Source of the DNA: an uncultured Gammaproteobacteria bacterium
GTDB taxonomy: Bacteria > Patescibacteriota > Microgenomatia > Daviesbacterales > UBA10151
Assembly: GCA_964459095.1 (NCBI GenBank)
Contig: CAYWKL010000002.1
Location: 2,858 to 66,857 of the forward strand
DNA length: 64,000 nucleotides
Direction: 5' to 3'
Shown: positions 615 to 48,268 of the stretch, in pieces
Position numbering within the stretch: the first letter of the stretch is position 1
How the letters are laid out: each line of letters opens with the position of its first letter
The notes under the pieces: generated by a model
Told to the model about the DNA's origin: nothing
Database searches by the model: none
The model's input: only the letters and a program-made list of their open reading frames with translations
Program-made: the position numbers and the translations under genes

Positions 615-1529
615 TTAACTCAAATATATAAATCCGTCAGGCGTTGCATTTATGACCCTAGCCAATTGGTTTCCGTTTTCATCTGTGTAATCCCATATCT
701 CTGCCAGTGTGCTCCTGTGCAAATCAAATCCTATGTCGTCGGTGAATATTGTAATGTTGTTGGATGGGTTTCCGTTGGTTGTTACTTTCACAGTCAGCGT
801 ATCCTTGCTGCCGTCTTCCAGCTTGCTGAACTCGTAGCATTTCAGCGCATTCTGGTCTGTGTTTCTCGCCAAGTCAAAGACAGACCTTGGAGGAGTGACA
901 AAATTTGTATTTGTTGATATGTCGCTAAGGTCGGCAGTCGCATATCCGAAGCATATCACATTTCCTTTTGCAGCATCCGGAGTTCCATAGCATTTGTCAG
1001 TATGGGATATCACACTTACTTCAAAGTCCGCAGTCTGCGTTGCGCCCATTGTGTAAGCACCTGCCCTGGATGTCTGGATGGCTCCTGTGGGATTCCTCAC
1101 TGTCACTTTAGGAAGAGTGTCTATGCTGCATCCGGTTCCGACAATATTATCAACAGACTCCTGGACCTTTGCGGTGTAATCCATTACATCAACATAAAAG
1201 TTAGTGCTTGGAACCGATGAGTTCATGAAGAAATAGAATTTATAGTTTACATTTGGAGTTACTGACAGTGTTCCGGAGTTTAATGATTTGGTTCCGAGGT
1301 CTTCCCTCGCTCCGTTCAGCCTGAAAACTCTTACTAATTCGTTTACCAGCAATGATGTACCCCCTATATATTTATCAACTCCAGTAAAGGTAACATCTGG
1401 CTCAATTAGATTAGCCAACGAAGAACTACTTGGAATTTGCTGTTTTACAACAGAAGAACTGTTATTTGACTGCGAAAGATAAACAAAAATGACTATAAGT
1501 ACTATTGCCCATAATGCGTTATTTTTCAC
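615..1529 (-). CDS. Secreted or surface protein, paralog A. N-terminal hydrophobic signal/anchor, Ser/Asn-rich linker, many N-x-S/T sequons, conserved C-terminal TLAEIWDYTDENGN motif.
   Basis: ORF track. Clear paralogy with 1580..2521 (shared FDLxxxTLAEIWxxxDExxNxL C-terminus). Visibly GC-richer than the flanks. Confidence 0.6.
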   Translation of the reverse strand: MKNNALWAIVLIVIFVYLSQSNNSSSVVKQQIPSSSSLANLIEPDVTFTGVDKYIGGTSLLVNELVRVFRLNGAREDLGTKSLNSGTLSVTPNVNYKFYFFMNSSVPSTNFYVDVMDYTAKVQESVDNIVGTGCSIDTLPKVTVRNPTGAIQTSRAGAYTMGATQTADFEVSVISHTDKCYGTPDAAKGNVICFGYATADLSDISTNTNFVTPPRSVFDLARNTDQNALKCYEFSKLEDGSKDTLTVKVTTNGNPSNNITIFTDDIGFDLHRSTLAEIWDYTDENGNQLARVINATPDGFIYLS

Positions 1530-1579: not shown

Positions 1580-2521
1580 CTAAGAAACCTGGATAGTTTG
1601 GTGCCTTCCTGCAATGGTTGTTGAACCAAGGTTGTTGTTAGACTCATCCTGGAATCCCCATATCTCTGCAAGTGTGTTTTGGTCCAAATCAAAGTCAACA
1701 TCTTCAATCATAATGCTGATGTTGGCTGAACTGCTTGCTGCAGGGTTCTGTCCGGATGCAGGCTTAACTGTAACCTTTAGAGTTTGGCTTGCCGTGTCTT
1801 CCAACAAGTTTAATTGATAGCAGCTTGTTGAATATCCAGTTGTCTGTATATTCCCTATAGAGTAAGGTATCGCGCTTGAAGGCGTGTCTGCTTTGACTGA
1901 CTCATAGGTTGTAGAGTTGTACTGGAAGCAGATGGCATTCTTGCTTGGCGCCCCTGGGTTCCCATAGCATGCGTCAGCTCCTGCTTTAACCTTAACTTCA
2001 ACATCAACAACTTCGTCTTGCGCAACATCTTCTACGTTTGTTGCGTTTGTCAAAACCTGCCCATCAGAGTTGTAAACCGTGATAGCCGGGTTGGCATCCA
2101 CTGTGCACAATTCTCCAACTTTGTTGTCAGTTGCCTTCTGGCATGGTGCCACATAACTCTCTACAGTTGTATAACGGGTGTTGCTTGATGTATTTTCCCC
2201 ATAATACAATTTATATGTAGCGCCTGGTACTAGGGTCACTGTTCCAGAATTCATTGATACCTGCCCTAAATCCATAATGCTTCCTTGTTTTATAACCCTT
2301 ACAAAATCAGTTGTAAGAGCTGTTCCCTTCAGGTGCTTGTTTAGCCCTGTAAAGGATGCTTGCCCATCAACAAGCTTGCACAAGTCCACTCCTGTGCCTG
2401 TGTCTCCGCCACCGCCACCACTATTAGGAGGGGGTAACTGAGGTGCCTGTTGCTGCTGGTTTAGTAACAACACTGCTACTATAATGGCTCCAGCAATCAA
2501 AAGTCCTTCATTCTTTGCCAT
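1580..2521 (-). CDS. Secreted or surface protein, paralog B (signal/anchor, Gln/Pro/Gly-rich linker, beta-rich body). Possible virion or pilus-like structural protein.
   Basis: ORF track. Tandem paralog of 615..1529. Confidence 0.6.
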   Translation of the reverse strand: MAKNEGLLIAGAIIVAVLLLNQQQQAPQLPPPNSGGGGGDTGTGVDLCKLVDGQASFTGLNKHLKGTALTTDFVRVIKQGSIMDLGQVSMNSGTVTLVPGATYKLYYGENTSSNTRYTTVESYVAPCQKATDNKVGELCTVDANPAITVYNSDGQVLTNATNVEDVAQDEVVDVEVKVKAGADACYGNPGAPSKNAICFQYNSTTYESVKADTPSSAIPYSIGNIQTTGYSTSCYQLNLLEDTASQTLKVTVKPASGQNPAASSSANISIMIEDVDFDLDQNTLAEIWGFQDESNNNLGSTTIAGRHQTIQVS

Positions 2522-2928: not shown

Positions 2929-3149
2929 TAAAAGTATTGAAAGTAGAAAAAAATATTTCAATGAATTAAAAGATGGTTTATTTAGCAAAAAACAAAAAAA
3001 ATCATTATATAAACTGCAGATACAATTGCAGTTATTAAGGCGTCTTAAAAGAAAAATCATAAGAATAAACAGGAGAGATATTGTTGATGTTGAAAAAAAA
3101 GGGTAAAAAAGATATTCACTTGTTATATGCTAAGATGAGTTTTTGAAAG

Positions 3150-3980
3150 ATGGAAGAACTAAAAACATTCGAGCAGGTCATAGGGATACAGAGATATAGC
3201 AACTCAACAAAGAGGATTTATAGGTTTCATATTAAAAACTTCTTGATATTTTGTAGAGGCAAGCCTGCCCAAGATAAAATTTTGGAGTATTTATTCAACC
3301 TGGAAAGGTACAAACCATCATCGCTGAACATAGCAAAATACAGCATAATTTACTTTTTCAGAAATATTATGAATCAGGAGATAATTACCAAAATACCTAA
3401 AATAAAAAGGGAAAAATTATTGCCAAAAACGATTGATAGTGATGCGATAATGAAGATGGTAAACATAACTTCCAACCTCAAGCATAAAATATTGATAGAG
3501 CTTTTGTACAGTAGTGGGTTAAGATTGGGAGAGGTTAATAAAGTACAATGGACTGATTTAGATTTCAAGAACAGATTAATCTTTGTAAAGGGCAAAGGCA
3601 ACAAAGAAAGGTATACCAAGCTATCTGAAAGAGTTATTGGTGATTTGATGAAATATAAAGAAGTGAGGAATGCTAAGGGAGATAACAAAAACCCCTATGT
3701 GTTTGATAGTGAGCAAAGACCAGAAACCCATATATCCAAAAAGACAGTTCAGAAAGTTTTGGAGAATGCTGCAAGAAAACTGAATTTGGATGTTAGGGTG
3801 TCACCCCATAAGATAAGGCATTCTTTTGCAACTCATAGTTTAGAGAATGGAATTGATAGTAGGTTTATTCAGAAGATGCTGGGACATTCAAGCTCAAGAA
3901 CAACAGAGATTTACACACAAGTTACAAGAAATAGTCTGAAGAACATTGAAAGTCCTTTGGATGTTGCTTGCAGAGTGTAG
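3150..3980 (+). CDS. Tyrosine recombinase/integrase (XerC/D-like).
   Basis: Catalytic R (SGLRLGEV), HKIRHSFAT (HxxR), GHSSSRTTEIYTQV (catalytic Tyr). Confidence 0.85.
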   Translation: MEELKTFEQVIGIQRYSNSTKRIYRFHIKNFLIFCRGKPAQDKILEYLFNLERYKPSSLNIAKYSIIYFFRNIMNQEIITKIPKIKREKLLPKTIDSDAIMKMVNITSNLKHKILIELLYSSGLRLGEVNKVQWTDLDFKNRLIFVKGKGNKERYTKLSERVIGDLMKYKEVRNAKGDNKNPYVFDSEQRPETHISKKTVQKVLENAARKLNLDVRVSPHKIRHSFATHSLENGIDSRFIQKMLGHSSSRTTEIYTQVTRNSLKNIESPLDVACRV

Positions 3981-4021
3981 TTTAATCTAACCTCATTAGA
4001 TTAAACAGATAATTATCGAAA

Positions 4022-4309
4022 ATGAAAAAAATTATACTATTGATTGGAATTGTAACATTACTATTAATTAGTGGGTGTGATAAACAAGAACAATCTATTT
4101 GTGTTGATAAGAATTGTTCTAATTTAGTTATAAATAATTCCTCAACGATATTTAAGAATATTACAGCTATGTTTGTTATAGATTGTTCATTACCCGAATA
4201 TTATGGAAATGGAACTGTTGAAATAGTTTATGGTGAGGCGATATATAATAATACAAATGTAATAGAAATCCCATTTATAGAGTTTTGTAAAAGATTAGAG
4301 TCAAAATAA
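4022..4309 (+). CDS. Small lipoprotein (LLISGC lipobox), Cys-rich.
   Basis: ORF track. Signal plus lipobox. Confidence 0.5.
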   Translation: MKKIILLIGIVTLLLISGCDKQEQSICVDKNCSNLVINNSSTIFKNITAMFVIDCSLPEYYGNGTVEIVYGEAIYNNTNVIEIPFIEFCKRLESK

Positions 4310-4559
4310 TTTTTTTCACATCCGATAATAAAAATTAAATAACAGATTTAAAGATTCATTGACGGAAATTATAGTTTAAATCCGTCATTTGAATTTCATA
4401 CATTATGCTATATTAAAACACGAAACCCAAAAATAACTTATTTCACAACATCACCTATAAGTTAGATATAGTTAAAATTCAAAAACTATATAAACAAGCA
4501 CTAACTCCATATTTTGCGGCCCACACGATGGCGGTTTATTATTAAGTTTAGGTTTAGAG

Positions 4560-4754
4560 GTGATAAGCATCAGTGAAGAGTTTGTTGATTTCATTGCTTT
4601 CTTGGATGATAATGAGGAAAAGAGAGAGTGGTATGTAAAGATAATTGAAGCCAGCCACTTTGTAACATTCATAACCAAGGACGGAAATACTGTTTCTATA
4701 CCCTCAAGCAGGGTTTTGAAGATAAAAAAGAGGAGAGTTGCTTCAGATGATTAG
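4560..4754 (+). CDS. Hypothetical small acidic protein overlapping the MCM start.
   Basis: ORF track only. Confidence 0.3.
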   Translation: MISISEEFVDFIAFLDDNEEKREWYVKIIEASHFVTFITKDGNTVSIPSSRVLKIKKRRVASDD

Positions 4755-7700
4755 TGAAAGAATATCTGAGTTTGCAGACTTCTTTGCAAAGAACTACATG
4801 GCGGAGCTGACACAAGCTAAAGGCTGCATCATAATATCATTCACAAGCCTGTCAGAATGGAATGTTGACTTGGCCAGTGAGCTTCTTGGTTCTCCCGAAG
4901 ATTATTTGAAGATGGCAAACAAGGCTATTCAAACGCTTATTGATGAAAGAGAGATAACAGTGAGATTCACAGGGCTTCCAAATACACAGAATAGGAATGT
5001 TTGGGAAACAAGAAAAGAGGATGTTGGCAAGTTTATTGCATTGACGGGCATAATCAACAAGTCATCCAGTATAATTCACTTATGTGAAACTGCAAAATTT
5101 GAGTGCTCGAATTGTGGAACGGTGATGTCTATTGTTCAGAATGACGGCAAGTTCACAGAGCCTTCCAAATGCAACTGCGGAAGAAAAGGAAAGATGAATT
5201 TGATTGACAAGGAATTCACGGACATAATCAAATTGGGAGTTATAGACGACCTCATGGCAAGGGAGAATGTGGACAGAAGTATCGCAAGAGAAAAGCTTGC
5301 AATATTATCGCAGGACCTGACTTCGCTCGAAGTTGACCAGAAGATAAAGCCAGGTAAAAAGGTAGTTCTAAACGGCTACTTCAAATATCAGCAGAAATCC
5401 GGCAGTGCAGAGTTTGATTCCATCTTCCACGTTAATTCAATGGAATTTGTGCAGGTTGGGTGGGACACTGTCAAGGTGAACACAATAGAAGAATCACAAA
5501 TTAAAATGTTGGCAAAACAGGATGATATAATAAACAGGCTGGCAGAATCAATTGCTGATGTTGAAGGATTTGCAGAGGCAAAAAAAGCATGCTTATTGAT
5601 GCTAGCTGGCGCCCCCCATAAATATGATGAAAATGGGCACCTTGTATCAAGAGGGACCACCCATATCCTGTTAATCGGCAATCCCGGAGGCGGGAAAACT
5701 TTCTTAGCCAAAAGAGCAGGTTCCATCTCTCCAGTCTATTCTTTTGCGTCTGCTGCGACAGCTTCCGGAAAAGGGCTTGTGGCTGCAGTCAGCCAGGATA
5801 AGGATATAGGCGCATGGGTTATATATCCAGGAGTTGTGGCAATGGCTAATAAGGGTGTGTGTATCTCAGGCAATCAAAAAATTATGACTAGCAGGGGACT
5901 TTTATCAATTAAAGATGTTAAGCAGGATGATAAGATATTATCTTTTGGTTTTGACGGTGTGAAGGAGAAGCATGTATCCGGACTTATTTTTAACGGGGTT
6001 AAGGAGGTTGTACAACTAACACTTTATTCAGGAGACACAATCACATGCACGCCGGACCATAGAATAATGACCAGTGGCGGATGGAAGCCTGCTGGAGACT
6101 TAACCACAAAGGATTATATCAAAAATTACTTTACTTCAATTACCAACTTTGAGAACAGAGAGGATATTGAAGATGGATGGCTTTTTGGATTTGCATTGTC
6201 AGATGTGTGGTACAACACCTCCTTAAAGAAGGGTTCCAAAAATTGTGTGCGAAATGTCATGTCTTACAGTTCTTCCATAATAAACAAAGAAAGGTCGGAA
6301 TATGTGCATAAACTGCTGATTGGAAGGGGAATCAGGAGTATACATGTTAAAAATATTCCTTCCAATAAGCATCTTGTAGCTGGAAAACAGCAGAAGTTTA
6401 AGGAAGGGGTTACTTATAGATTTTCAGATAAGAAGCTGCATAATGAAATAAAAGATATGATGGAGAGCAATCTCCTCGTAAAATCTACTGATGATTTTTA
6501 TGCTGGATTTTTAGCGGGTATTCTGAGTACAGATGCTTGCATTAGCCACAAGAAAGGAAAGTATGGGATTAAGCATGAAATAGCAGTGACTCTGACAAGA
6601 TACAACAAGTCCAGCCAAACAAAAGAATGGAACAGAAACATTCAGATATTAGTGAACTCATTATTTCATCGCTTTGGAATTTTAAGTTGTATCAGGGGGG
6701 ATAAAATTATAATATCATCACTTACAAGCTACAATCTTTGTGTATCACTGCTCAAAGAGTTTATGGTTGGCAAGAATAAGGAAAAGTTATACCACGTTTT
6801 ACCAAAAAAGAGGATAAGCAGCTATGATGACTGGATGGATGATGAATATGTAAAATGGTTTTGTTCAATCAAATTTAAAACAAGCAAAACTGTCAAATAC
6901 GGATTACATTCTTCTATATGGTACTCACGTAAAAAAAAGAGGGTAAGCTCGCAATTGATGAATATACTGTTCAAATTTTGGGAGGAGATAACAGACGAGG
7001 AGTTCTGGCCGCCTGCTAAGGATTATTTGTTAAACAAAATAATTTCTGTGGAGAGGGCGGGAAGCCAGGAGGTGTATGACATCACTATTCCTGAAAATCA
7101 TAATTTTATGTTGACTGGGGGGTTAGCCCATAATTGTGTCATTGATGAAGTGGATAAAACACATAAAGATGATTATGGGGACCATAACAACGCAATGAAT
7201 GATATGGAATGTTTGATAGCCAAGGGCAATGTGAAAGGGAAGCTGGAGACAGAAACAAGCTATTTGGCGACAGCAAACCCGGAAAACAGGATATTTTCCT
7301 CGTATGATACATATGCAAACCAGATAGATATGCCCAAGGATTTTCAGGATAGGTTTGACCTGATATTGCCGATGGTGTCCCCAACTGACAAAAAAGCCCA
7401 GGAAAAGATAATGGATATAATGCTTGGAAGACACACTGATGATAAAAGCAAAAAAAGCTGGAATCCGGAGTTTACCCATAATTTTATTCAGAAGTATGTG
7501 GCATATTGCAGAAGGAGTAATCCCAACCCAATATTATCTCCAGAATTGTTTGCATACATAAAGAAGAAACTCATTGAGCTGATGAAACCAAGAAGCGAGG
7601 AGCAGTCAATGATATCTTTCAGGCATCTTGAAAGCATACTAAGGTTTGAATATGGAGCAGCAAGGTTAAGGCTTAGGGATATAACTGAAGAAGATGTGGA

Positions 7701-8001
7701 CCTTGCGTTTAACCTCAAGAAGAAATCATTTATAGAGCTTGGGATAATATCAGAGGCAGGGGGATTCAGCTGGGCAAAGCTTGAGGAGGTAGAGGAAAAA
7801 GTTATATCTGAGAAAGAAATAATTCATAACATACTGAGGGAACTGATGCCAGATGGCAGCACCATGGCTGAATGGCACGAGATAATTAAGAGATGCACTG
7901 AGAAAGGGATAGAAGAGGATAAAGCTGAAGAGCACATCCAGAAGCTGATTACAAAGGGAGATTATTTTGAACCGAAGCGGGGATTCCTGAGGAGGATATG
8001 A
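4738..8001 (+). CDS. mcm: Archaeal-type MCM replicative helicase (662-aa extein) interrupted by a 425-aa intein. N-terminal C4 zinc finger (CSNCG...CNCG), Walker A GNPGGGKT, Walker B reconstituted as GVC|VIDEVDK, C-terminal winged helix.
   Basis: Motif match to the MCM AAA+ core. The ORF-track start at 4738 is TTG. A likely ATG start is 4747. Confidence 0.85.
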   Translation: MLQMISERISEFADFFAKNYMAELTQAKGCIIISFTSLSEWNVDLASELLGSPEDYLKMANKAIQTLIDEREITVRFTGLPNTQNRNVWETRKEDVGKFIALTGIINKSSSIIHLCETAKFECSNCGTVMSIVQNDGKFTEPSKCNCGRKGKMNLIDKEFTDIIKLGVIDDLMARENVDRSIAREKLAILSQDLTSLEVDQKIKPGKKVVLNGYFKYQQKSGSAEFDSIFHVNSMEFVQVGWDTVKVNTIEESQIKMLAKQDDIINRLAESIADVEGFAEAKKACLLMLAGAPHKYDENGHLVSRGTTHILLIGNPGGGKTFLAKRAGSISPVYSFASAATASGKGLVAAVSQDKDIGAWVIYPGVVAMANKGVCISGNQKIMTSRGLLSIKDVKQDDKILSFGFDGVKEKHVSGLIFNGVKEVVQLTLYSGDTITCTPDHRIMTSGGWKPAGDLTTKDYIKNYFTSITNFENREDIEDGWLFGFALSDVWYNTSLKKGSKNCVRNVMSYSSSIINKERSEYVHKLLIGRGIRSIHVKNIPSNKHLVAGKQQKFKEGVTYRFSDKKLHNEIKDMMESNLLVKSTDDFYAGFLAGILSTDACISHKKGKYGIKHEIAVTLTRYNKSSQTKEWNRNIQILVNSLFHRFGILSCIRGDKIIISSLTSYNLCVSLLKEFMVGKNKEKLYHVLPKKRISSYDDWMDDEYVKWFCSIKFKTSKTVKYGLHSSIWYSRKKKRVSSQLMNILFKFWEEITDEEFWPPAKDYLLNKIISVERAGSQEVYDITIPENHNFMLTGGLAHNCVIDEVDKTHKDDYGDHNNAMNDMECLIAKGNVKGKLETETSYLATANPENRIFSSYDTYANQIDMPKDFQDRFDLILPMVSPTDKKAQEKIMDIMLGRHTDDKSKKSWNPEFTHNFIQKYVAYCRRSNPNPILSPELFAYIKKKLIELMKPRSEEQSMISFRHLESILRFEYGAARLRLRDITEEDVDLAFNLKKKSFIELGIISEAGGFSWAKLEEVEEKVISEKEIIHNILRELMPDGSTMAEWHEIIKRCTEKGIEEDKAEEHIQKLITKGDYFEPKRGFLRRI
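5860..7134 (+). mobile_element. Intein (Cys1 ... His-Asn, +1 Cys) with a LAGLIDADG homing-endonuclease domain (LFGFALSDVWY, YAGFLAGILSTDACI), inserted in the MCM Walker B motif.
   Basis: Boundaries verified on the sequence: tgt at 5860-5862 begins CISGNQ..., and ...GGLAHN ends at 7134 followed by Cys. Splicing restores GVCVIDEVDK. Confidence 0.8.
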
Positions 8002-8690
8002 AGATGGATAAAAATAAAACACTAGTTATATTAAAAGGGTTACTATTATTTTTAGTGTTAAGCTTAATAATTCTAACTATCTTGTTTATTTATTTTAATA
8101 GCGAGTACCTTATCCAGAAATTTACACCCTATATTGATGAACCTCAACAATGCTTTTCAGTCTCCCAGGACTGCAGTGAATTTGCAGATAACCTGTCCTC
8201 AAAAGAGATTGACAGTTTGAAACTAGAGTATAACCAGCTAGTAACAAGATTTAATGATTTAATAAATGTTACCAATAGAGTATATGAAGAAAAAATATTT
8301 TGGAAAGAACAAGCGTTCAAGAAAGGAGATGGGAGAATGCTATGCTGGAATGAAAATACAGATGTTCCTGATAAAATATTGGATAAAAAGGAAGTGTGCA
8401 GGGAAGGATGCTACTATAAGATGCTATGCACAAACAGCATGAAGCCTTTGTTTGACTGCACGGATACACTGACGGTGTACACCAACCTAGAAGAGGATGA
8501 AATAGAGATGTGTGATGTGATAGGGTTTAGTACTCTGGAATATCCCGAATATGACTGGGTTGTTCATAGGGTGGTTAACATAACTGACGAGGGGTATGCA
8601 ACAAAAGGGGATGCTAACGCGTATCCTGACAGTTATATTGTTAAGTTTGAGGATGTAATATTTAAACTAATTGAGGTTAAGTACGGATGA
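7998..8690 (+). CDS. Type II membrane protein with a Cys-rich ectodomain.
   Basis: ORF track. N-terminal TM helix. Confidence 0.5.
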   Translation: MKMDKNKTLVILKGLLLFLVLSLIILTILFIYFNSEYLIQKFTPYIDEPQQCFSVSQDCSEFADNLSSKEIDSLKLEYNQLVTRFNDLINVTNRVYEEKIFWKEQAFKKGDGRMLCWNENTDVPDKILDKKEVCREGCYYKMLCTNSMKPLFDCTDTLTVYTNLEEDEIEMCDVIGFSTLEYPEYDWVVHRVVNITDEGYATKGDANAYPDSYIVKFEDVIFKLIEVKYG

Positions 8691-9622
8691 AAAAAGGAAA
8701 GAAATTTGAACATAAACAGGAATGTGATAGTTGCAAGACTAAATCTTGTTACAGACATTGTAATGAATATTCTGAATGTAGAGGAAAACATAAGAAAAAA
8801 GAGAATTGGTTTATGGAAATTAAAAAGTGTAACTTTTGTGATAATATTATTTATAAATCCGACAAACCAAAACAATTTCATTTAATTAAAACTTGTTTTA
8901 ATAAGGAATGCAAATTAAAACTTCATAGAATAAGTGCTAATAAATATTCACTAAAATTAAGAATATTAATACCAAGAAAAAATTGTGCATATTGTCAAAA
9001 AGAATACCAGCCTTATAAGGTAACAGGGAAAGTATGTTCTGATAATTGTGCAAAAAAATTATATGATTTAAATAACAAAGATAGCAAAAAATCAAGAAAT
9101 AGGGAGTATTGGCAAAGGAAAAAAGTGGAAGACCCAGATTATTTAAAACGATTATGGAAAAACAAATATCAAAAACGAAAATCTTATTATCTCATTTATA
9201 ATAAAAAAGTTTATGAAAAATTTAAAGATAAATACAGGCAAATTGAAAATAAAAGAAGGGAAAAATTAGGATTACCTTTAGTAAGTCATAATTATAAACG
9301 GGAGGTTGAATTAATTAAACGGATTTCTCAGTTATTTCCACAGGAAAAAATGAAAATACATGATAGGAGGACATTTAAAGGAGTAGAGTTAGACATACAT
9401 ATTCCTAACAAAAAACTCGTGGTTGAACATCAAGGTGTGCAACATTTTAAAGAAGTTCCATATTTTAAAAGTAATTCTTTAAAAAATAATCAAGCTAAGG
9501 ATGAATTAAGGAGAAAATTATGTATTCAAAATAATATTAAACTAATCGAAATAAATTATAATGATATTATATCTACAAATTTTATTATTAATAAACTAAA
9601 AGAGGTTGGAATTGATGCGTAA
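8687..9622 (+). CDS. Lys-rich protein with an N-terminal multi-Cys zinc-finger region and a C-terminal DUF559/Vsr-like PD-(D/E)xK endonuclease-like domain (GVELDIHIPNKKLVVEHQGVQHF).
   Basis: Motif resemblance to restriction-endonuclease-like DUF559 domains. Confidence 0.4.
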   Translation: MKKGKKFEHKQECDSCKTKSCYRHCNEYSECRGKHKKKENWFMEIKKCNFCDNIIYKSDKPKQFHLIKTCFNKECKLKLHRISANKYSLKLRILIPRKNCAYCQKEYQPYKVTGKVCSDNCAKKLYDLNNKDSKKSRNREYWQRKKVEDPDYLKRLWKNKYQKRKSYYLIYNKKVYEKFKDKYRQIENKRREKLGLPLVSHNYKREVELIKRISQLFPQEKMKIHDRRTFKGVELDIHIPNKKLVVEHQGVQHFKEVPYFKSNSLKNNQAKDELRRKLCIQNNIKLIEINYNDIISTNFIINKLKEVGIDA

Positions 9623-10697
9623 ACTATTTTTATTATTAATTTTAATTTTATTTGTGGTGGCAAGTTGTCAAATCAGGGAACTTTCTAAAACCCAAGCAGA
9701 ACTTGATATTGACGATTGTAACACCAATCCAAGAGAAGATGATTTGTGTAAGTGTGAAGAATATAACTACATTGATAAAGAAGCAGGAGGATATGCAGAC
9801 GAGGCTTGTAATTATTTTTATAAATGGGGTCATGCTGATTGCGCAGCCGAAGCAAAACAATATGTAGACTCAATGAACTGGTCTACAAACGAAAGCAAAT
9901 ACATTTCGCAGATTAAATATGAGATGTATTGTGAGCAGCGTAAAATAAGAACATCAGGGGATTTCCAAAGATTCTGCCAAATAACTTGTGGTAAATCCCG
10001 CCCAAAGACAGATTATGAAAAACACCCAGAGGATTATGTTGCTGAAATAAAATTGATTTCAAATTGTTCTTCAAAGGTTTCTGATTCTGAAATTAATATT
10101 AGTTTGAGCCAGATGGAGATTTGGGCGACTCAATGCCTTAATCAAAAGGTAAATTGTAACATTTCATGTTCTTTAGGAAACCAAACAACCTATCGCCTCA
10201 AGAACGAATGCGAGAAAGGAAATGATAGGTATATACTTTCAAATATTTCTATTGATTGTAGTTTAACTGCCAATGCAGACTGGGTAACAGCGTCATGTTA
10301 TGAATCAACAGAGTCTGTATGTAGACTAAAAAATCAATGTGAGCTTAATAATCCTGATTGGGTGGAAGAAACAAATCCAAATTATCAGGAAGAATTTGGA
10401 TGGATTAACAACTCGATATGGTGGTTTTGTGATTGGGTACCTACAAATTATCCCAATGAAACTGGTGATGAGTATATTCCATCTTACGCAGACAAATGTG
10501 ATTACTATAAAAAAGAATTATTAAAATTAAATCAAACAATATGCCGAGAGAAAACTGAAGTTGAGAAATTAATGGATAAAGACTGTAAAAATTTATTTGA
10601 TGAAATAATTAAATGGAATTGTAAATCTGAGGGATTGATAAGTAAAGAGTGCGCAGAAAGAAAACAAGCTTGGAGGCTTAAAGGGTGTAAGATATAA
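9606..10697 (+). CDS. Secreted Cys-rich protein (signal peptide, more than 30 Cys, N-glycosylation sequons).
   Basis: ORF track. Confidence 0.55.
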   Translation: MELMRKLFLLLILILFVVASCQIRELSKTQAELDIDDCNTNPREDDLCKCEEYNYIDKEAGGYADEACNYFYKWGHADCAAEAKQYVDSMNWSTNESKYISQIKYEMYCEQRKIRTSGDFQRFCQITCGKSRPKTDYEKHPEDYVAEIKLISNCSSKVSDSEINISLSQMEIWATQCLNQKVNCNISCSLGNQTTYRLKNECEKGNDRYILSNISIDCSLTANADWVTASCYESTESVCRLKNQCELNNPDWVEETNPNYQEEFGWINNSIWWFCDWVPTNYPNETGDEYIPSYADKCDYYKKELLKLNQTICREKTEVEKLMDKDCKNLFDEIIKWNCKSEGLISKECAERKQAWRLKGCKI

Positions 10698-10933
10698 TGC
10701 TTAAGAGATACAGGTTGTGGAACACATTTGAAAGAAGATGGTTTTGGAGCTGCTTGATTATTACAGCATTAGGCGCATATTCATTATTTATCTTCAAAAA
10801 TATTTTAGCAATAATAATCTTTGAAGTATCTCTGATATATTATGGAAATGTCATATTCAGAAGCTTATCACGGCAGGAAAGGGAGTGGAAAGGAGTTACA
10901 ACCTACCCAGTTACAGATGTGGAGGTAAAATGA
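10697..10933 (+). CDS. Small membrane protein.
   Basis: ORF track. Hydrophobic helices. Confidence 0.4.
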   Translation: MLKRYRLWNTFERRWFWSCLIITALGAYSLFIFKNILAIIIFEVSLIYYGNVIFRSLSRQEREWKGVTTYPVTDVEVK

Positions 10934-11317
10934 ATGTCATCGGGAAAGTATGTGGTATACTTGTTTATTTTGTTGGTTGTACTTGCAGAAAAGCCCTCAC
11001 CGCCTGTATGCACTGAAATTAAAATGAACAATATAACTGAAATTAGATATGTTAATTCAACCAGGAATGTTGTAGGTCATACAAACTGCAGCATCCAGAT
11101 ACCTGAAAAAACCGGGTTGGATATAAAATGCGAGAATGGGACTCAAATATTCTGCCAGCCTATGGAATTCAACTTTGAAAGGTTAAATTCATTTGGAGTT
11201 TATGGAGGGCAGTACTGCTACAATGGGAGTGTAGAGGATTGCGCAAGGATAGGTGGGTGTGAAAATATATTAAGTGGCAGGGAAGGCAACATATATTACT
11301 ACAAGGTGTTTTGTTAA
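10934..11317 (+). CDS. Small secreted Cys-rich protein.
   Basis: ORF track. Signal peptide. Confidence 0.5.
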   Translation: MSSGKYVVYLFILLVVLAEKPSPPVCTEIKMNNITEIRYVNSTRNVVGHTNCSIQIPEKTGLDIKCENGTQIFCQPMEFNFERLNSFGVYGGQYCYNGSVEDCARIGGCENILSGREGNIYYYKVFC

Positions 11318-11334
11318 AATGGAGGTGAACTAAA

Positions 11335-11517
11335 ATGTCAGCATTAACGCCGGAAACTACGGTAACTATATTGATTGTAGGATATATAATAACCTTTGCC
11401 TATAGCGTCTATATGGCAATATTGAACTGGAAGCAGGCAAAGGTCAAGGATATACTACTTGAGACAAACAGTATATTGAGGAGGATAGAAAAGAAGATAA
11501 AGGAAAAGCATGGCTGA
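11335..11517 (+). CDS. Small single-TM protein.
   Basis: ORF track. Confidence 0.4.
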   Translation: MSALTPETTVTILIVGYIITFAYSVYMAILNWKQAKVKDILLETNSILRRIEKKIKEKHG

Positions 11518-12223
11518 AAAAAGCAAAATAGAATGGACGAATGCTTCATGGAATTGTGTTACAGGCTGCACTAAAGTTAGCGCTGGCTGTACTAATTGCT
11601 ATGCAGAAACACTTGCATTAAGATTGCAGAAAATGGGGAGCAAGAGATACAGGAATGCATTTACATTAACATTGCACGAGGATGCTTTAAACCTGCCATT
11701 AAAGTGGAAGGAACCCAAGAAGATATTTGTAAACAGCATGTCTGACCTGTTTCATAAGGATGTGCCCGATGACTTTATTGACAAAGTTTGGGAAGTTATG
11801 GAAAAGGCAAACTGGCATATTTATCAGATACTGACAAAGCGACCGGAACGGATGGCGCAGTATAGCTGGACCAAAGAGCAATTATCTAATGTGTGGCTTG
11901 GAACTTCTGTTGAAGATTTAAGAGTCAAGGATAGGATTAAATTATTGCAAACTTCAAATGCCAAAATTAGGTTCATAAGTTTTGAGCCTTTGATTGGGGA
12001 TGTTGGAGAACTTAATTTATCCAACATACACTGGGTTATTGTCGGCGGAGAATCTGGAAAAAATCACAGACCAATTGAAAGAGAATGGGTTACAAATATT
12101 TTAGCCCAATGCAAAAAACAGAATGTTGCCTTTTTCTTCAAGCAATGGGGTGGATTAAAGTCGAAATCAGGTGGAAGACAGCTTAATGGCAGGACTTATG
12201 ATGAGTATCCTAATGCAGTATAA
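11510..12223 (+). CDS. Phage Gp37/Gp68-family protein (DUF5131).
   Basis: N-terminal IEWTNASWNCVTGCTKVSAGCTNCYAE signature and the C-terminal ESG/QWGG region typical of the family. Confidence 0.85.
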   Translation: MAEKSKIEWTNASWNCVTGCTKVSAGCTNCYAETLALRLQKMGSKRYRNAFTLTLHEDALNLPLKWKEPKKIFVNSMSDLFHKDVPDDFIDKVWEVMEKANWHIYQILTKRPERMAQYSWTKEQLSNVWLGTSVEDLRVKDRIKLLQTSNAKIRFISFEPLIGDVGELNLSNIHWVIVGGESGKNHRPIEREWVTNILAQCKKQNVAFFFKQWGGLKSKSGGRQLNGRTYDEYPNAV

Positions 12224-12504: not shown

Positions 12505-12863
12505 TTAGGGAGGTAATAACAATGAAATCAAAAAGTTTAACTTATTACCAACTAGAAAAAGAATTTGACAGAAAAGTTAAGGAATTGCAGGATAGATGCC
12601 CACATAAGAGGATTACTAAATGGATGGAGGGATGGTGGGCGCCCGGACATGGAACAGGAACTTCAACCAGATTGTGTAAAAGATGCAATGCCCAAGTGTA
12701 CTCTAGTTACACCTGCAAGTTCTGTGACAAATGCAAGAAACAAAATCCTTGGTATGTTACCGCTTGTGGGGAATGTGAAAAGGGGAAGTTGATAACATAC
12801 TTTGTTATTGAGAGGTTGGGAAATATTATTAAGAAAGAGAAACTTAAAGAGGATTTAAAATGA
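12501..12863 (+). CDS. Zinc-ribbon protein (several CxxC pairs).
   Basis: ORF track. Cys spacing. Confidence 0.45.
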   Translation: MIREVITMKSKSLTYYQLEKEFDRKVKELQDRCPHKRITKWMEGWWAPGHGTGTSTRLCKRCNAQVYSSYTCKFCDKCKKQNPWYVTACGECEKGKLITYFVIERLGNIIKKEKLKEDLK

Positions 12864-13149
12864 GCGACGATGAATTTGATAATGAGGACCCCATAGGGCT
12901 GTTCAGGGGCATTAAGCCTTACAATAAGTGTGAGGACTGCAATAATAAAATAAAACCCGGCTATAAGAAATGTTACAGATGCCATCTAAAATCAGGAGGC
13001 CCGCCAAGATGATAAACTGGGATTACTGTACATTTGTATCTGCTTCCATAGGGATAGGAGGGGTAGGGCTTGGGATAATTATAGGATGGATTTTGAAGTC
13101 AAACCGCAAGATATAAATATAAGCGGGTAATATTGATAATATAGGTAAT

Positions 13150-13629
13150 ATGGTAAAACAACAATGCGGCAAGGATGGATGTAAAGAAAGTGCAGTTTAT
13201 TGTGAAGAGCATTACTTTAAGCTGAGAAGAAAATTGTCTAATAGAAACTACACATTATTAGTATTGGCGTTAGGCTTGCTATCTGTTTTTCTTCTGGTGT
13301 GGTTTCCTCTCAAAGATGTTGACGAGAATAAATTTTGTCAGGAAAAGGTAAACAAATACTTTCCGGAATTTAAGTTTGAGAATGTATATTTAAGTTTAAA
13401 TAGAGAATGTGTAGGGGAAGTTAGAGAGAATCAAATAAATGTCAAAAGAGATGGACTAACATTGGTTGAAGGCAAGGAAGAAGAACAGATAACTAAAACG
13501 TTTAAATTAGATGAAGCGGGCATAAGATATTTGGAAAGCGATGATTTATACGGATTAATGTTCCTAGTGGGTATATTTACAACTTTCATGTTATTTGTTG
13601 TTATCAAAGAATGGATAATGGGATTATAA
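13150..13629 (+). CDS. Zn-ribbon plus two-TM membrane protein.
   Basis: ORF track. Confidence 0.45.
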   Translation: MVKQQCGKDGCKESAVYCEEHYFKLRRKLSNRNYTLLVLALGLLSVFLLVWFPLKDVDENKFCQEKVNKYFPEFKFENVYLSLNRECVGEVRENQINVKRDGLTLVEGKEEEQITKTFKLDEAGIRYLESDDLYGLMFLVGIFTTFMLFVVIKEWIMGL

Positions 13630-35292: not shown

Positions 35293-35402
35293 ACTTTCTT
35301 TTATAACTCATTTTTGAAAGGTCTTTATCTGTATATCCTTTTGTTTTTAATACATCATCCGCATTCATTTTGAAAACCTCATTGAACATAATGTTCCCGA
35401 TT

Positions 35403-35708
35403 TCAAGAATGTTTTAATTTAGGCGAAGCCGTCTTGAAACCGCTTTTGGTGGTGCCAAAAACCGAAGGTTTTTTAGCATCGGAATTATCGGCAGTCGCCC
35501 TATCATCATTAACTAATCTCATTATTAAATAAAGTATAAATGCAAAAGGGAGGATTCCAGAGAAAACTCCGAGTAAAACATCTTTATTTCTTGCACCTAA
35601 AAAATACCAAGATATTGCCATAAAATTAGTTATTATCATAGCAATAAATACTATTCTGAAATATAAATCTCTATATTCTTTTTGTTGTATGTACAATATA
35701 TTTGTCAT
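35403..35708 (-). CDS. Small two-TM protein. Its last ~16 codons are encoded by the 51-nt repeat copy 1.
   Basis: ORF track. Confidence 0.45.
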   Translation of the reverse strand: MTNILYIQQKEYRDLYFRIVFIAMIITNFMAISWYFLGARNKDVLLGVFSGILPFAFILYLIMRLVNDDRATADNSDAKKPSVFGTTKSGFKTASPKLKHS

Positions 35709-35745: not shown

Positions 35746-36015
35746 TCACGAAGATTTGTCAACAATATCTAATAATATCTCTTTCCTTTTTATTCCACAG
35801 CCATCGCAGTACATATCATTGCCATATTGACTAAATTTTTTATGTTGACAAACTTTGGGCGAATCGGGATGAGCCGTGAAATTATTATTATGAGAAGGTT
35901 TGAGGTTCTCTTCTCTTTCTGCATTTTCATTATAGATTAAATTAATTTCCCTTGTGATGATTTTCAACGCATCACGAATTCTATTTATTTTATTTCTTAA
36001 TTGTTTATCTTCCAT
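35746..36015 (-). CDS. Small Zn-ribbon protein with an NNFTAHPDSPKVC core. Paralog of 44344..44637.
   Basis: Shared 41-nt near-identical core. Confidence 0.5.
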   Translation of the reverse strand: MEDKQLRNKINRIRDALKIITREINLIYNENAEREENLKPSHNNNFTAHPDSPKVCQHKKFSQYGNDMYCDGCGIKRKEILLDIVDKSS

Positions 36016-36497: not shown

Positions 36498-36861
36498 TTT
36501 ATATCACCAAATATAAGTAATACGAGCTTATTTATATGGTTTTCTATTTAATATTAAAACGTATGATATTTGGGTGTAATATATATAAATAGGGAATATT
36601 AGGGATATATTATATATTTCATTAATTATTTTATATATTGAAAATATGTAGTAAATTGTTGTTGTGTAATATTATTTTGTTTATTGTATATATTGAAATT
36701 ATATGATTAATATAAAAAATTTCATAGTGCCTAACCATTTTCTCACTCGTAAATTTTACATAAATTTTACCTTTAAGTTACTCATAAAAAAATTGAATAC
36801 ACCCCATCGTTTCCACTGGAATGTAGGAAAATAAATGTTTTGACGACGATAACACTCCCAT

Positions 36862-36891
36862 TTCCTATGGAAAAATAAAAAAGGGAGGGGG
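36862..36891 (+). repeat. ORB-like element 1: dyad ttcctatggaa plus 10-nt spacer plus G-string gggaggggg.
   Basis: Seen in the sequence. Resembles the archaeal origin recognition box architecture. Confidence 0.45.
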
Positions 36892-37071
36892 TCCCTGAAA
36901 TTAAAAATATATATATTTCCTATACTATCTGTTTGTATAAAATATTAAAATGTATGTTGTGTGGTTTAAAGTTATATATAATATTAAAAATATATTATAT
37001 ATTAAAAAATACCATATAGTTAGGTATTACATAATTAATATAAGATATATATATATTTTTGTTTTTTTGTA

Positions 37072-37099
37072 CCCCCCTCCAAATTGCGTTCCAGTGGAA
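37072..37099 (-). repeat. ORB-like element 2 (inverted): G-string cccccctcc plus 8-nt spacer plus dyad ttccagtggaa.
   Basis: Seen in the sequence. Inverted relative to element 1 across the AT-rich core. Confidence 0.45.
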
Positions 37100-37305
37100 A
37101 TGAACGTAGCGGTCGTTAGGCTGTACAATTTACTCACTACCCTTTAAGCTCTACTTCCACTGGAACACGAGTGAAATTTAGTATGTATTTATATACTATT
37201 AAAATCAAAAAAACACATATGTTTCCTATGGAATATTTGATATAGGAAAATATAAACAACATTCTAAACTATTAAAAATATATTATATATTATTTAATAA
37301 ACACA

Positions 37306-44343: not shown

Positions 44344-44637
44344 TCACGAAGGTTTGCCCGAACCTTTACCCATACACATAGCACAATAAACCCTCATACC
44401 TTTTATTATTCGTTCACCTTTACCTTTACATCGAGGGCAAACTTTGGGCGAATCGGAATGAGCTGTAAAATTATTATTCGGCGACTGAGGCGTAGCCGAA
44501 GCTTGAGGTTTTGAGAGAAAATCTTTTAATGACATCAGCCAATTATCTACATGGTCATAACTTAATCTATTCTCTTTTTCAAGCATTTCATATCTTTTAA
44601 ATGCGTCTTTTTCTTTGAAATATTTATTCCAATTCAT
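44344..44637 (-). CDS. Small protein with an NNNFTAHSDSPKVC core and DnaJ-like CxxCxGxG fingers. Paralog of 35746..36015.
   Basis: Shared 41-nt nucleotide core (44437-44477 vs 35849-35889). Confidence 0.5.
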   Translation of the reverse strand: MNWNKYFKEKDAFKRYEMLEKENRLSYDHVDNWLMSLKDFLSKPQASATPQSPNNNFTAHSDSPKVCPRCKGKGERIIKGMRVYCAMCMGKGSGKPS

Positions 44638-45173: not shown

Positions 45174-45692
45174 TTTTTTCCTCCTTTTTCGTTAGCTCGG
45201 CGGTTTATGTTTTAATATCGCTTAATGTTCCCGATTTCAAGAATGTTTTAATTTAGGCGAAGCCGTCTTGAAATCGGAATTATGCGATAGTAAACCCAAA
45301 ACCATCTATCTTAATTTTTTTATAACTTCATCTTTTCCAACTCTGAAATAATCATATCCTAAAAACTTTACATAATATCCTTCTTTATCTTCTTTTTTTA
45401 CTTTTCTTATTGCAGTAAATTGCCCATAATTTGTTGATACATGGAATTTTATCTTCATTTTTTATCATCTCCGTTTTGGGTTTATTTTGCATAAGTTCCA
45501 GTATAACGCAACTCTATTCTAAATATTTATATTGATTTTTGATATGAACCTATCCATCCATATCCTTATCAGCTTACTCCTGTCATAGCCTCTTGTATCG
45601 CATATCTTCCCAAACTTCTCCCATTGCTGCGGGTAAACTGTGATTGTTCTTGATTTAAGCTTTTCCATAGTAATTAGGTATTACACTATTAT

Positions 45693-46922
45693 TTATATAG
45701 TTTTCGGTTTAATCCTTCTGTTACCCTCAATTCCTTTCTCTTCAAGTATCATAAACTTGCTTATCTCTCTGTTCAACCCAACATTGAGCATAGTCTTAAA
45801 AATCTGCTCAGGGCTGATTCCCATCGCCTCTCCCATCCTCCTGACTTGATTACCTTCTTCCGTGAGTTCAAGTATTATCTCCCCATCTTTCTCGATAACA
45901 TTCTTCACAAGATTTAGGCCGCCATCTGCTCTCTTCTTCCTGCCTAGCTCGTCATAAATCTTTAAGGGGTTGCCATCTTCAATCTCCAGTCTGCCTTTCT
46001 CAGTAAGCCTTATGCCTATCCTTTCCTTCTCAATATCATCTAAAGTCTTCCATTCATCAGCAGTATACTCCTTCCCATCCATAAATTCTATCCAGCCTTT
46101 CTTGATAGCTTCATAAATTCCGCCCATGACCATGCTTGAGATTGCTTTGTCAAGTGAAATATTCTCCTTATCTAACGATTTGTTTAGCTCATCCAAATAA
46201 TTAGTTACCCTCTCTTTGCCTTTTCCGTCGCTGTCATTAACCCTGAACTTTCCGTCTTTCTCCTCTATAAACCCCTTGGCTATCTGCTTATCCAAACTTT
46301 TATTTATCTCTTTCAGCGAGATGCCAAGCTGCTCAGCCAGCTCTTCCCTTGTGGTCCATTCAGTCATTCCTTTAATCAAATCCATGCTGGGTTTATTATT
46401 ATTATCAAAATGTTTTAAGTAATCCTCAACTCTTAGGAATCTCATTGACTCCTTTGACTTGAACTTTCCATTGTCCTCTTCCATCAGCCCATCATTTACA
46501 AGCTCAGAAACATGCTCATCAATCTTCTTTAAGGGCATCTTCATCATCTCAGCCACTTCTTTCTTTGTTACCCACCTGTCAAAGTGCAGAAATATATTTC
46601 TTTTGTTGTCATCCATGCCCAATACTCTCCTGCCCTTGTCAGTAATATTAAACCTGACTTTATTCTTAGAGGATGCAGGCAAAGAATCATATTCTTGTGC
46701 AGTCAGATTATCACCATTCAGATTAGGAGTGATAAACCCCCAATGTAAAGATGCTTTTATATTTTCATCAACCTCATCATCAGGTGTTGCGCCTTCAGGA
46801 TAAAAAATTACCCTATCCTTTACCCCTTTAGGCAGCCTTCTCAGTTCTTGTGTTGTCAATATCCGGTCTCCCAACTTTGCAATGATTCCTTTATCTTCGA
46901 CTATTGGTTTCATCTTTCTCAA
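45693..46922 (-). CDS. Protein with multiple tandem winged-helix-like DNA-binding repeats (LxxIxExxxELxxxGLIEExDGKF pattern repeated at least 4 times).
   Basis: Internal repeats seen. No ATPase motifs. Confidence 0.45.
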   Translation of the reverse strand: MRKMKPIVEDKGIIAKLGDRILTTQELRRLPKGVKDRVIFYPEGATPDDEVDENIKASLHWGFITPNLNGDNLTAQEYDSLPASSKNKVRFNITDKGRRVLGMDDNKRNIFLHFDRWVTKKEVAEMMKMPLKKIDEHVSELVNDGLMEEDNGKFKSKESMRFLRVEDYLKHFDNNNKPSMDLIKGMTEWTTREELAEQLGISLKEINKSLDKQIAKGFIEEKDGKFRVNDSDGKGKERVTNYLDELNKSLDKENISLDKAISSMVMGGIYEAIKKGWIEFMDGKEYTADEWKTLDDIEKERIGIRLTEKGRLEIEDGNPLKIYDELGRKKRADGGLNLVKNVIEKDGEIILELTEEGNQVRRMGEAMGISPEQIFKTMLNVGLNREISKFMILEEKGIEGNRRIKPKTI

Positions 46923-47214
46923 CCAATTCCTTTAAACCTATAACTATCCTTCTAGTTTTCTCAATTTCTTTGATAAGCATATTCACCCTCCCTACTATTG
47001 ATTCAAGAGTCTTCTCAACATTTATCCTCTTATAAGGGATTGCAACTTCCTGATACCCAACCTCTTTAGCAGTCTTCTCGCTCCCAACCCACCTAAACTT
47101 ATCAGTTATCCATCCATTCTTTAGAGCGGCTAATGTATGGTCGTCACTCAATAATCTTTTCTCACCTTTCTTCCCATAATTCAAATTATTTCCCGTGCAA
47201 TTTACTTCAAACAT
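46891..47214 (-). CDS. Hypothetical protein.
   Basis: ORF track. Confidence 0.4.
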   Translation of the reverse strand: MFEVNCTGNNLNYGKKGEKRLLSDDHTLAALKNGWITDKFRWVGSEKTAKEVGYQEVAIPYKRINVEKTLESIVGRVNMLIKEIEKTRRIVIGLKELVEKDETNSRR

Positions 47215-48268
47215 TTTCCCTATACCTCACTGCGTCTTTCTCGCGCTTCTTATCCATTATCTGATGCAACGGCTTCTTCAAAGGCTCAATGTCGTCATAA
47301 AATATATTTTCTTTCTTAAGCTGAACTATCCTCTCATCCTCCTTATCATCAGTCACTCTGTATACCCTCTTAACCAAAATGCCTTCACCCTTGATGAAAG
47401 GTTCAATCTTTATCCATTGCCCCTTCTTGCTCTTGTACCTGTCACTTGCCAGATACCTCATATGACCCCTCACATAAAATGAGTAATTATAATGCCTTCC
47501 GCTTAACCCTCCGCCTAAACTATCAATATACCTTTTCAAAGTTCCTGTCAGTTTTATGACATTTGAATCCGGCAGTGCCATCTTGCCTTCCTTGATTCTT
47601 CGTTGGATGTTCTTCTCCTCCCTCTTCCTTTCCACTATCTGAATTTCCCTATCGTTGATAAACACCAGCAAATTCATTATAAACTCTTTCAGAAATCTTA
47701 ATGTAACCTTATCATCATAAAAAATAGGAACATTTGTCCTGTCAATTATTATCTTGAACTCATCTATAAATAATTTGTCTCCATCCTGGCAGAGATAATG
47801 CACCCTGTAGCCCATACCTATCTTCTCAAATCTTATCCCTTTTGAATCCTCCTTGTTTACTATCACCGGGGTTTCTGTAATCATTATCCCTATTATCTTG
47901 TCAACCCCAATCTCGCAATCCTCACCGTTTATCTCAGTGTCCAGGAAAATTGCCTTGAATGGCAGCGTGACATTCCTGTAAAACTCCTTCGTCTGCGGCG
48001 GCTTGTTTAATATCAAATACCTCTTTATGATTGTGTCAATTTCAAACACGTGCGCCATCTCCAGCGCCATATCAATATTGCCAAACATCTCTTTTGATTT
48101 CTTGTGCTCGTATTGTTTAATCTTATCCTCCGTGTCAAGGCCAATCATCTTGTAATGCTTTAGCCTTATCTTATTCATCACGTGGATGTCCAAGGAATTC
48201 AATCCCGTTTCCTCAAAAGTCTTCTTTATGTCATTGTAAACATTCACAAACATCTGGTAGTTAATCAT
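47207..48268 (-). CDS. Possible archaeo-eukaryotic primase (AEP) superfamily protein: FLDTE (motif I-like), GMGYRVHY (motif II-like sGxGYHxH), IDEFKIIIDRTN (motif III-like).
   Basis: Motif order and spacing only. Tentative. Confidence 0.35.
   Translation of the reverse strand: MINYQMFVNVYNDIKKTFEETGLNSLDIHVMNKIRLKHYKMIGLDTEDKIKQYEHKKSKEMFGNIDMALEMAHVFEIDTIIKRYLILNKPPQTKEFYRNVTLPFKAIFLDTEINGEDCEIGVDKIIGIMITETPVIVNKEDSKGIRFEKIGMGYRVHYLCQDGDKLFIDEFKIIIDRTNVPIFYDDKVTLRFLKEFIMNLLVFINDREIQIVERKREEKNIQRRIKEGKMALPDSNVIKLTGTLKRYIDSLGGGLSGRHYNYSFYVRGHMRYLASDRYKSKKGQWIKIEPFIKGEGILVKRVYRVTDDKEDERIVQLKKENIFYDDIEPLKKPLHQIMDKKREKDAVRYRENV

Follow-up and report, generated by a model that had tools for sequence, protein, structure and literature searches.

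No archaeal protein is invaded by inteins more often than MCM, and the movement of inteins between lineages is still debated, with viruses proposed as vehicles. The described inteins of archaeal cellular MCM/CDC21 are class-1 inteins with a nested LAGLIDADG endonuclease, seated in conserved motifs of the MCM ATPase (PMC4760082, PMC3972481, PMC10643990). In the published naming of insertion sites, a follows the Walker A Lys, b lies 27 residues further on, c precedes the pre-sensor-1 hairpin, d lies 4 residues after DELD, and e is described as ‘around the Walker B motif’ (Novikova et al. 2016, PMC4760082; also PMC3972481, PMC10643990, PMC6801210). Full-length archaeal-type MCMs, presumed to be replicative helicases, are also encoded by archaeal viruses (the haloarchaeal tailed viruses BJ1, HSTV-1 and HFTV1, an Altiarchaeum virus, MFTV1 and TPV1), and no intein was found in six viral mcm homologues (PMC10643990). 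Here we describe an mcm gene interrupted by an intein in a 64-kb stretch of DNA, the window (positions 2,858 to 66,857 of contig CAYWKL010000002.1; all coordinates below are those of the window). The window very probably derives from a large virus-like archaeal genome with its own gene for a divergent MCM replicative helicase, invaded inside the Walker B beta-strand by a mobile class-1 intein.

The gene lies in a single long open reading frame (ORF) on the forward strand (4738..8001, 1,087 residues in the six-frame listing), whose mechanical start is a TTG at 4738. The true start is probably the ATG at 4747, where the database protein P0001 (1,084 residues, encoded on an NCBI contig of 86,411 bp and identical to the window product) begins; counted from this codon, the gene including its intein spans 4747..8001. 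Profile, PDB and alignment matches place in the N-extein (4747..5859) the MCM N-terminal domain, with its OB fold and zinc finger (5104..5178), and the Walker A motif GNPGGGKT (5677..5700); the N-extein ends in ...ANKGV. A class-1 intein of 425 residues follows (residues 375–799; 5860..7134), after which the C-extein (7135..7998) opens with the +1 Cys and Walker B, CVIDEVDK (7135..7158), and continues through the pre-sensor-1 hairpin, sensor 1, arginine finger, a lid with sensor 2 and a weak C-terminal winged helix, all on the forward strand. The extein amounts to 662 residues from the TTG and 659 from the ATG, and 662 and 425 are exactly the sizes given for extein and intein in an earlier note on this DNA.

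In the unspliced product, Pfam finds MCM_OB, the MCM P-loop domain in two stretches with Intein_splicing between them, and then MCM_lid. When the intein is removed in silico, the P-loop domain (PF00493) is matched in one contiguous piece, residues 249–470 against profile positions 2–223 of 224 (E=6.8e-48), and its score rises from 143 bits in two pieces to 163 bits. Gene callers and domain scans will thus split or mis-size the helicase unless the intein is removed. MCM_OB (E=1e-10) and MCM_lid (E=5.6e-12) are matched on either side, the NCBIfam MCM model NF040949 is matched end to end by the extein (E=3.5e-94), and the top solved relative is chain 8x7t_D (E=1.8e-66, alignment over residues 27 to 661), deposited as ‘mini-chromosome maintenance complex 3’, which we take to be Thermococcus kodakarensis MCM3. 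The extein also has the four zinc-finger Cys (CxxC…CxC, invariant in eight members of the clade described below), both Walker motifs, ATANP as sensor 1, DRFD as arginine finger and SFRHLE as sensor 2. As judged from its sequence, the extein is a genuine but divergent archaeal-type MCM, and the archaeal MCM layout proposed in the earlier note is borne out. Its nearest relatives make up one clade, with 24 clusters at 47–87% identity, all of them metagenomic and several from groundwater; outside this clade, identity is at most 31% (about 30%). A scan of the GTDB species genomes for relatives of this clade returned none, and a scan of IMG/VR returned one remote match only, at 23% identity. The MCMs of the archaeal viruses named above are likewise distant, at only 22–26% identity.

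The intein parses canonically as GV|C…HN|CVIDEVDK (bars mark the splice junctions), running from Cys375 to Asn799 and followed by Cys+1. The earlier note had placed the intein in Walker B and written the junction as GVC|VIDEVDK; the site and the spliced product were right, whereas the bar stood one residue late. Both junctions fall within the Walker B strand; ATPase and helicase activity would therefore have to await splicing. Along the intein follow Cys1 (5860), block B TPDH (6049..6060), LAGLIDADG motif 1 GWLFGFALSD (6175..6207), LAGLIDADG motif 2 GFLAGILSTD (6505..6537), block F (7069..7107) and the terminal His-Asn (7129..7134). The splicing blocks that the earlier note led us to expect score above cut-off (TIGR01445, 35.2 against 24.5; TIGR01443, 20.7 against 15.6), Pfam PF14890 matches the intein at E=5e-18, and the two HINT halves match the solved mini-inteins DnaX, DnaB and RecA. 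The features of class 1 are present, namely Cys1, T64-x-x-H67, H424-N425 and Cys+1, and all of them are invariant in 16 homologues. In an alignment of 16 intein-family members, C1, T64, H67, D115, D225, D407, H424 and N425 are invariant; Thr64 and His67 are the block B TxxH, Asp407 belongs to block F, and D115 (GFALSD) and D225 (GILSTD) end the two LAGLIDADG helices. All residues needed for splicing and DNA cleavage are thus conserved, from which we infer that splicing, helicase and endonuclease activity take place.

The central 300 residues of the intein match Pfam LAGLIDADG_3 weakly (E=0.0011), and an AlphaFold model of the intein gives as top PDB matches in Foldseek the endonuclease-bearing inteins PI-PfuI (1dq3, 4e-13), the Tli and Pho VMA inteins, PI-PkoII and PI-SceI, together with the free LAGLIDADG enzymes E-DreI, I-Tsp061I, I-DmoI and I-OnuI, in keeping with the LAGLIDADG assignment made earlier. 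The Foldseek probability is 1.0 for PI-PfuI, the VMA inteins, E-DreI, I-DmoI and I-Tsp061I, with template-modeling (TM) scores of 0.3–0.5 on a model whose predicted local distance difference test (pLDDT) is 70. Like the window intein, PI-PfuI, the VMA inteins, PI-PkoII and PI-SceI consist of a HINT domain with an inserted two-motif LAGLIDADG domain; they differ from it in their host proteins and in sequence (10–15% identity), with TM scores of about 0.3–0.4 on this modest-confidence model. Translation would yield a 1,084-residue precursor in which the ATPase site could not form. The intein would then excise itself through an N–S acyl shift at Cys1, transfer to Cys+1 by trans-thioesterification, and cyclisation of the terminal Asn aided by the penultimate His, and ligation of ...ANKGV to CVIDEVDK... 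would give a 659-residue MCM, presumably a hexameric 3′–5′ helicase replicating the element. The excised two-motif LAGLIDADG endonuclease would cut intein-free mcm alleles at the insertion site, whereupon the intein would be copied in by recombinational repair (homing).

Intein-free alleles do occur among close relatives. P0003 and P0004 (659 residues, 85–87% identical to the window extein) lack the intein and show a gap exactly at both junctions, and in the protein alignment, with the DNA compared as well, the intein-free P0003, P0004, P0006 and P0012 all align with the gap exactly between GV and C/V. A junction of the P0004 type reads ...AGTAAAGGTGTG|TGTGTCATT..., and the window intein is a precise in-frame insertion relative to such alleles. 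In P0002 (60% identical) a full-length homologue of the intein occupies the same point as in the window, and P0005 carries an unrelated 165-residue mini-intein in the same insertion site, so that the Walker B site is filled in 3 of the 24 clade clusters. The polymorphism is thus one of presence and absence among close relatives, and absence of the intein from relatives at 85–87% identity indicates recent gain or loss. Elsewhere in the clade, the intein of P0010 (58% identical) interrupts the N-terminal zinc finger (FKEPNK|C…VSHN|CSCGRKG), where the +1 Cys is a zinc ligand. To our knowledge, published surveys locate all MCM inteins in the ATPase domain.

To follow the distribution of the intein itself, its sequence alone was compared exhaustively by phmmer with 1.84 billion representatives, at a threshold of 1e-30; a word-indexed search with the same query gave just 2 matches, and the exhaustive search was needed. 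It returned 19 cluster representatives below the threshold. An N-junction could be read in 15, and all 15 are MCMs in which the intein immediately precedes Walker B (…ADxGxx|C…HN|C(x)DExDK), which marks a dedicated MCM allele family. The same C-junction as in the other members is seen in the fragments P0029 and P0044, P0030 is a decayed copy, and P0046 was matched over part of its length only. The family includes a chromosomal MCM with four inteins, P0033, whose homologous intein is 41% identical and in the same place as that of the window. Set against the published sites, the window insertion, inside the Walker B strand, matches none of the four haloarchaeal sites a, b, c and d that PMC3972481 and PMC10643990 describe; judged by the published description, it is probably site e. 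The register of the insertion shifts within the family: counted back from the Walker B Asp, the +1 Cys stands at a distance of three residues in the window, P0002 and P0038, of two in most homologues, and of one in P0045, while extein length around the site stays constant. Such a one-residue slide among clearly homologous inteins is not accounted for by simple homing.

Comparison of inteins with their hosts bears on how the family has spread. In all hosts outside the window clade, intein identity to the window (32–54%) exceeds extein identity (23–31%), as in P0031 (54% against 30%) and P0029 (49% against 28%), which argues for horizontal transfer between MCM lineages. In P0002, inside the clade, the intein (59.5%) and extein (60.5%) are equally similar to the window, which indicates vertical descent within the clade. 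The contexts of P0031, P0032 and P0035 are strings of small ORFans with a virus-like look, whereas P0033, with its three further inteins, is surrounded by archaeal chromosomal genes (OMP decarboxylase, NMD3, a Tsr3-like gene and a pilin). One chromosomal host alongside several virus-like hosts, with intein identity above that of the exteins, points to horizontal exchange of the intein. Decayed copies also occur: in two contigs (L004, 3552..6105; L005, 393..3075) downstream of a truncated MCM lies a frame-shifted copy of the window-type intein, in which Cys1 is lost, His-Asn has become His-Thr and no C-extein follows; it adjoins an integrase and a methyltransferase/helicase pair.

These data also allow an alternative to be weighed, in which the intein is a fixed relic that still splices, with a dead endonuclease, and is inherited with its gene as an immobile passenger. 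That the window and P0002 are equally similar in intein and in extein is what vertical co-descent would give, the Pfam LAGLIDADG score is below threshold, and relatives include a mini-intein (P0005) and a decayed copy (P0030). Against a relic speak the invariance of both catalytic Asp (D115 and D225) across 16 family members, the 300-residue endonuclease domain retained at full length, the stronger conservation of inteins than of exteins across lineages, and the relatives at 85–87% identity that have no intein. On balance we regard loss of mobility as possible, though rather unlikely, and continue to read the insertion as a mobile intein.

We next consider the setting of the gene. No tRNA is present in the 64-kb window, and no housekeeping gene was found among the about 50 window ORFs scanned. 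The genes point rightward between about 3 and 32 kb, and leftward between 32 and 64 kb. Upstream of mcm stands a small forward ORF of 64 residues (4560..4754) whose stop overlaps the mcm start codon, and the mcm stop codon overlaps the start of the next ORF downstream; by these overlaps mcm is embedded in a tightly packed same-strand block, here of 28 kb, and they further suggest an expressed operon. The same block holds a terminase-like ORF, the C-terminal part of which matches the terminase large-subunit family phrog_2666 (1e-10). Other window genes encode HNH and Vsr-like endonucleases, YopX, DUF5131 and SPFH proteins, a glycosyltransferase, and a DUF2201/VWA protein with a second intein. 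Two contigs with an intein-free mcm (L001 and L002) and a third (L003) share gene order with the window at 40–89% protein identity, and these syntenic relatives are virus-like groundwater metagenome contigs. The window reads as part of a large virus-like genome rather than a small integrated element; integration as such is not to be judged from it.

Integrase–MCM elements are common in archaea, and the earlier note had taken the region for one of them, naming an adjacent integrase. That gene is real: a XerA-like tyrosine recombinase (3150..3980, +) lies about 0.8 kb upstream of mcm, with a Phage_integrase match at 4.9e-40 and 198 bits against a cut-off of 220 for NF040815. A small integrase-plus-MCM element or plasmid within an archaeal chromosome would explain this neighbour, and L004 likewise has a decayed MCM with a window-type intein beside an integrase. 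The 64 kb hold, however, no tRNA, no att-like repeat around the recombinase or bracketing a segment of the window, and no cellular gene among those scanned. The packed 28-kb block containing mcm also contains the terminase-like ORF and is syntenic with virus-like contigs without integrase; in L001 the recombinase is missing from the 2.4 kb available upstream of mcm. We consider a small integrated element improbable, and a virus-like genome the better account of the setting.

Archaeal virus records offer a direct comparison for such a genome. All 19 deposited viral records that match the window MCM do so as one uninterrupted piece of 1.4–2.1 kb, without an intein, and because of this the window is the first documented case of its type for that collection. 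In contrast to the cellular MCM/CDC21 inteins, the host here is a divergent virus-like MCM lineage and not the cellular helicase.

Several observations weigh against our overall reading. The virus assignment draws on one weak terminase match, in the nuclease domain only; the terminase-like ORF has no match in the INPHARED phage collection by tblastn, and no capsid or portal gene was identified among the window ORFs scanned. Megablast of window positions 3000..12000 against the INPHARED phages gave no match. For the intein, LAGLIDADG_3 reaches 19.7 bits, under the gathering score of 22.5, and the structural model is of modest confidence (pLDDT 70), with TM scores against full-length inteins of about 0.4; what speaks for splicing, helicase and endonuclease activity is residue conservation. 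The extein scores 316 bits against the 940-bit cut-off of NF040949, short of equivalence to the cellular archaeal replicative MCM, and has unusual motifs, GNPGGGKT for Walker A and NNAMNDM where HEAMEQQ is expected. The low score and unusual motifs mark a divergent MCM lineage whose biochemical role is a prediction. They could also be taken, with the decayed relative P0030, as signs that the interrupted gene is a pseudogene or its MCM non-functional or non-replicative. Yet the 3.26-kb frame is intact, every catalytic MCM motif and splicing residue is present, the 24-cluster clade retains many invariant positions at 47–87% identity, and the overlaps of its start and stop codons with the neighbouring ORFs point to expression as an operon. 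We consider a pseudogene, or a non-functional or non-replicative MCM, very improbable, and we retain the reading of a working, if divergent, viral-type helicase gene as the most probable one.

The remaining parts of the replication module proposed in the earlier note fared less well. The small ORF 4560..4754, called ‘AbrB-like’, has no AbrB/SpoVT match, and Pfam at E<=5 gave one irrelevant match at 0.15; it is 87.5% conserved in L001 and L002, and its homologues are confined to the closest relatives. We also considered small ORFs 5′ of mcm as a conserved MCM partner and rejected the idea, as sub-lineages carry unrelated families there. The ‘AEP-like’ gene (47207..48268, −) has no Pfam or PHROG match. 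Its product has 15 homologues at 46–100% identity and is a conserved ORFan; an alignment-based model (pLDDT 64) finds as best PDB match the anti-CRISPR AcrVA2 (E=9e-4, TM about 0.3), and no primase is among the top 50 PDB matches of this low-confidence model. In the intein-free relative L001, a fused PriS/PriL-like PrimPol (9465..10784) is readily found by Pfam; its position, between homologues of 12860..13012 and 13150..13629, has no window counterpart. The 409-residue product of 45693..46922, described as a multi-wH protein, has generic winged helix-turn-helix matches only.

One part of the module fared better, a repeat cluster at 36.8–37.2 kb that looks origin-like. A non-coding AT-rich stretch at 36.5–37.3 kb holds five TTCC(A/T)NTGGAA palindromes, at 36811, 36862, 37089, 37155 and 37223, and the motif gives 10 strand-matches across the window where 0.8 are expected; local direct and inverted repeats also occur within 36500..37300. 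This region is a reasonable candidate for a replication origin, and is probably the ‘ORB region’ named earlier. Longer direct repeats are found at 35389–35442 and 45223–45276 (54 nucleotides, 98%) and at 35849–35889 and 44438–44478 (41 nucleotides, 93%), the members of each pair being about 9–10 kb apart.

Further features of the window are recorded here. The product of 7998..8690 (+), directly 3′ of mcm, carries a membrane segment at its N terminus, shows a KGDAN…D motif that recalls archaeal type I signal peptidase, and has no Pfam match. The second intein, also with a LAGLIDADG domain, lies at 58894..61218 (−) inside the DUF2201_N metallopeptidase/VWA protein, with junctions RWNFA|C…VVVHN|CDF. 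The C-terminal splicing blocks of the two window inteins share a 52-nucleotide inverted DNA match (7093–7144 and 59787–59838); kinship of the two inteins was considered and rejected, the similarity being limited to this block. At the left end of the window, 615..1529 and 1580..2521 (−), the sole leftward genes there, encode adjacent proteins of about 300 residues with N-terminal hydrophobic segments and TLAEIW in both; they appear paralogous by eye, and neither product has a family match.

Taken together, the anatomy of the gene, its exact boundaries, the conservation of its catalytic residues, the presence/absence polymorphism and the site specificity of the intein family are established here, and they describe something of a known kind, an intein with an endonuclease in a conserved MCM ATPase motif, in the less usual host of a divergent virus-like MCM lineage. 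No new mechanism is revealed. The added value is modest: an intein is documented in a viral-type MCM, and one intein family occurs in chromosomal as well as in viral-type MCMs and shows signs of having moved horizontally. As a speculation to which we give a low chance, the Walker B family may circulate between viral and chromosomal archaeal MCM genes, in which case archaeal viruses would be intein vectors among replicative helicases, the splicing requirement could act as a post-translational switch on viral genome replication, and the register slide would record repeated re-invasions of divergent targets. Several virus-like MCM lineages and at least one chromosomal MCM have a homologous intein at one Walker B site, and this intein is better conserved than the proteins that host it; the case provides a concrete example for the idea of viruses as intein vectors.

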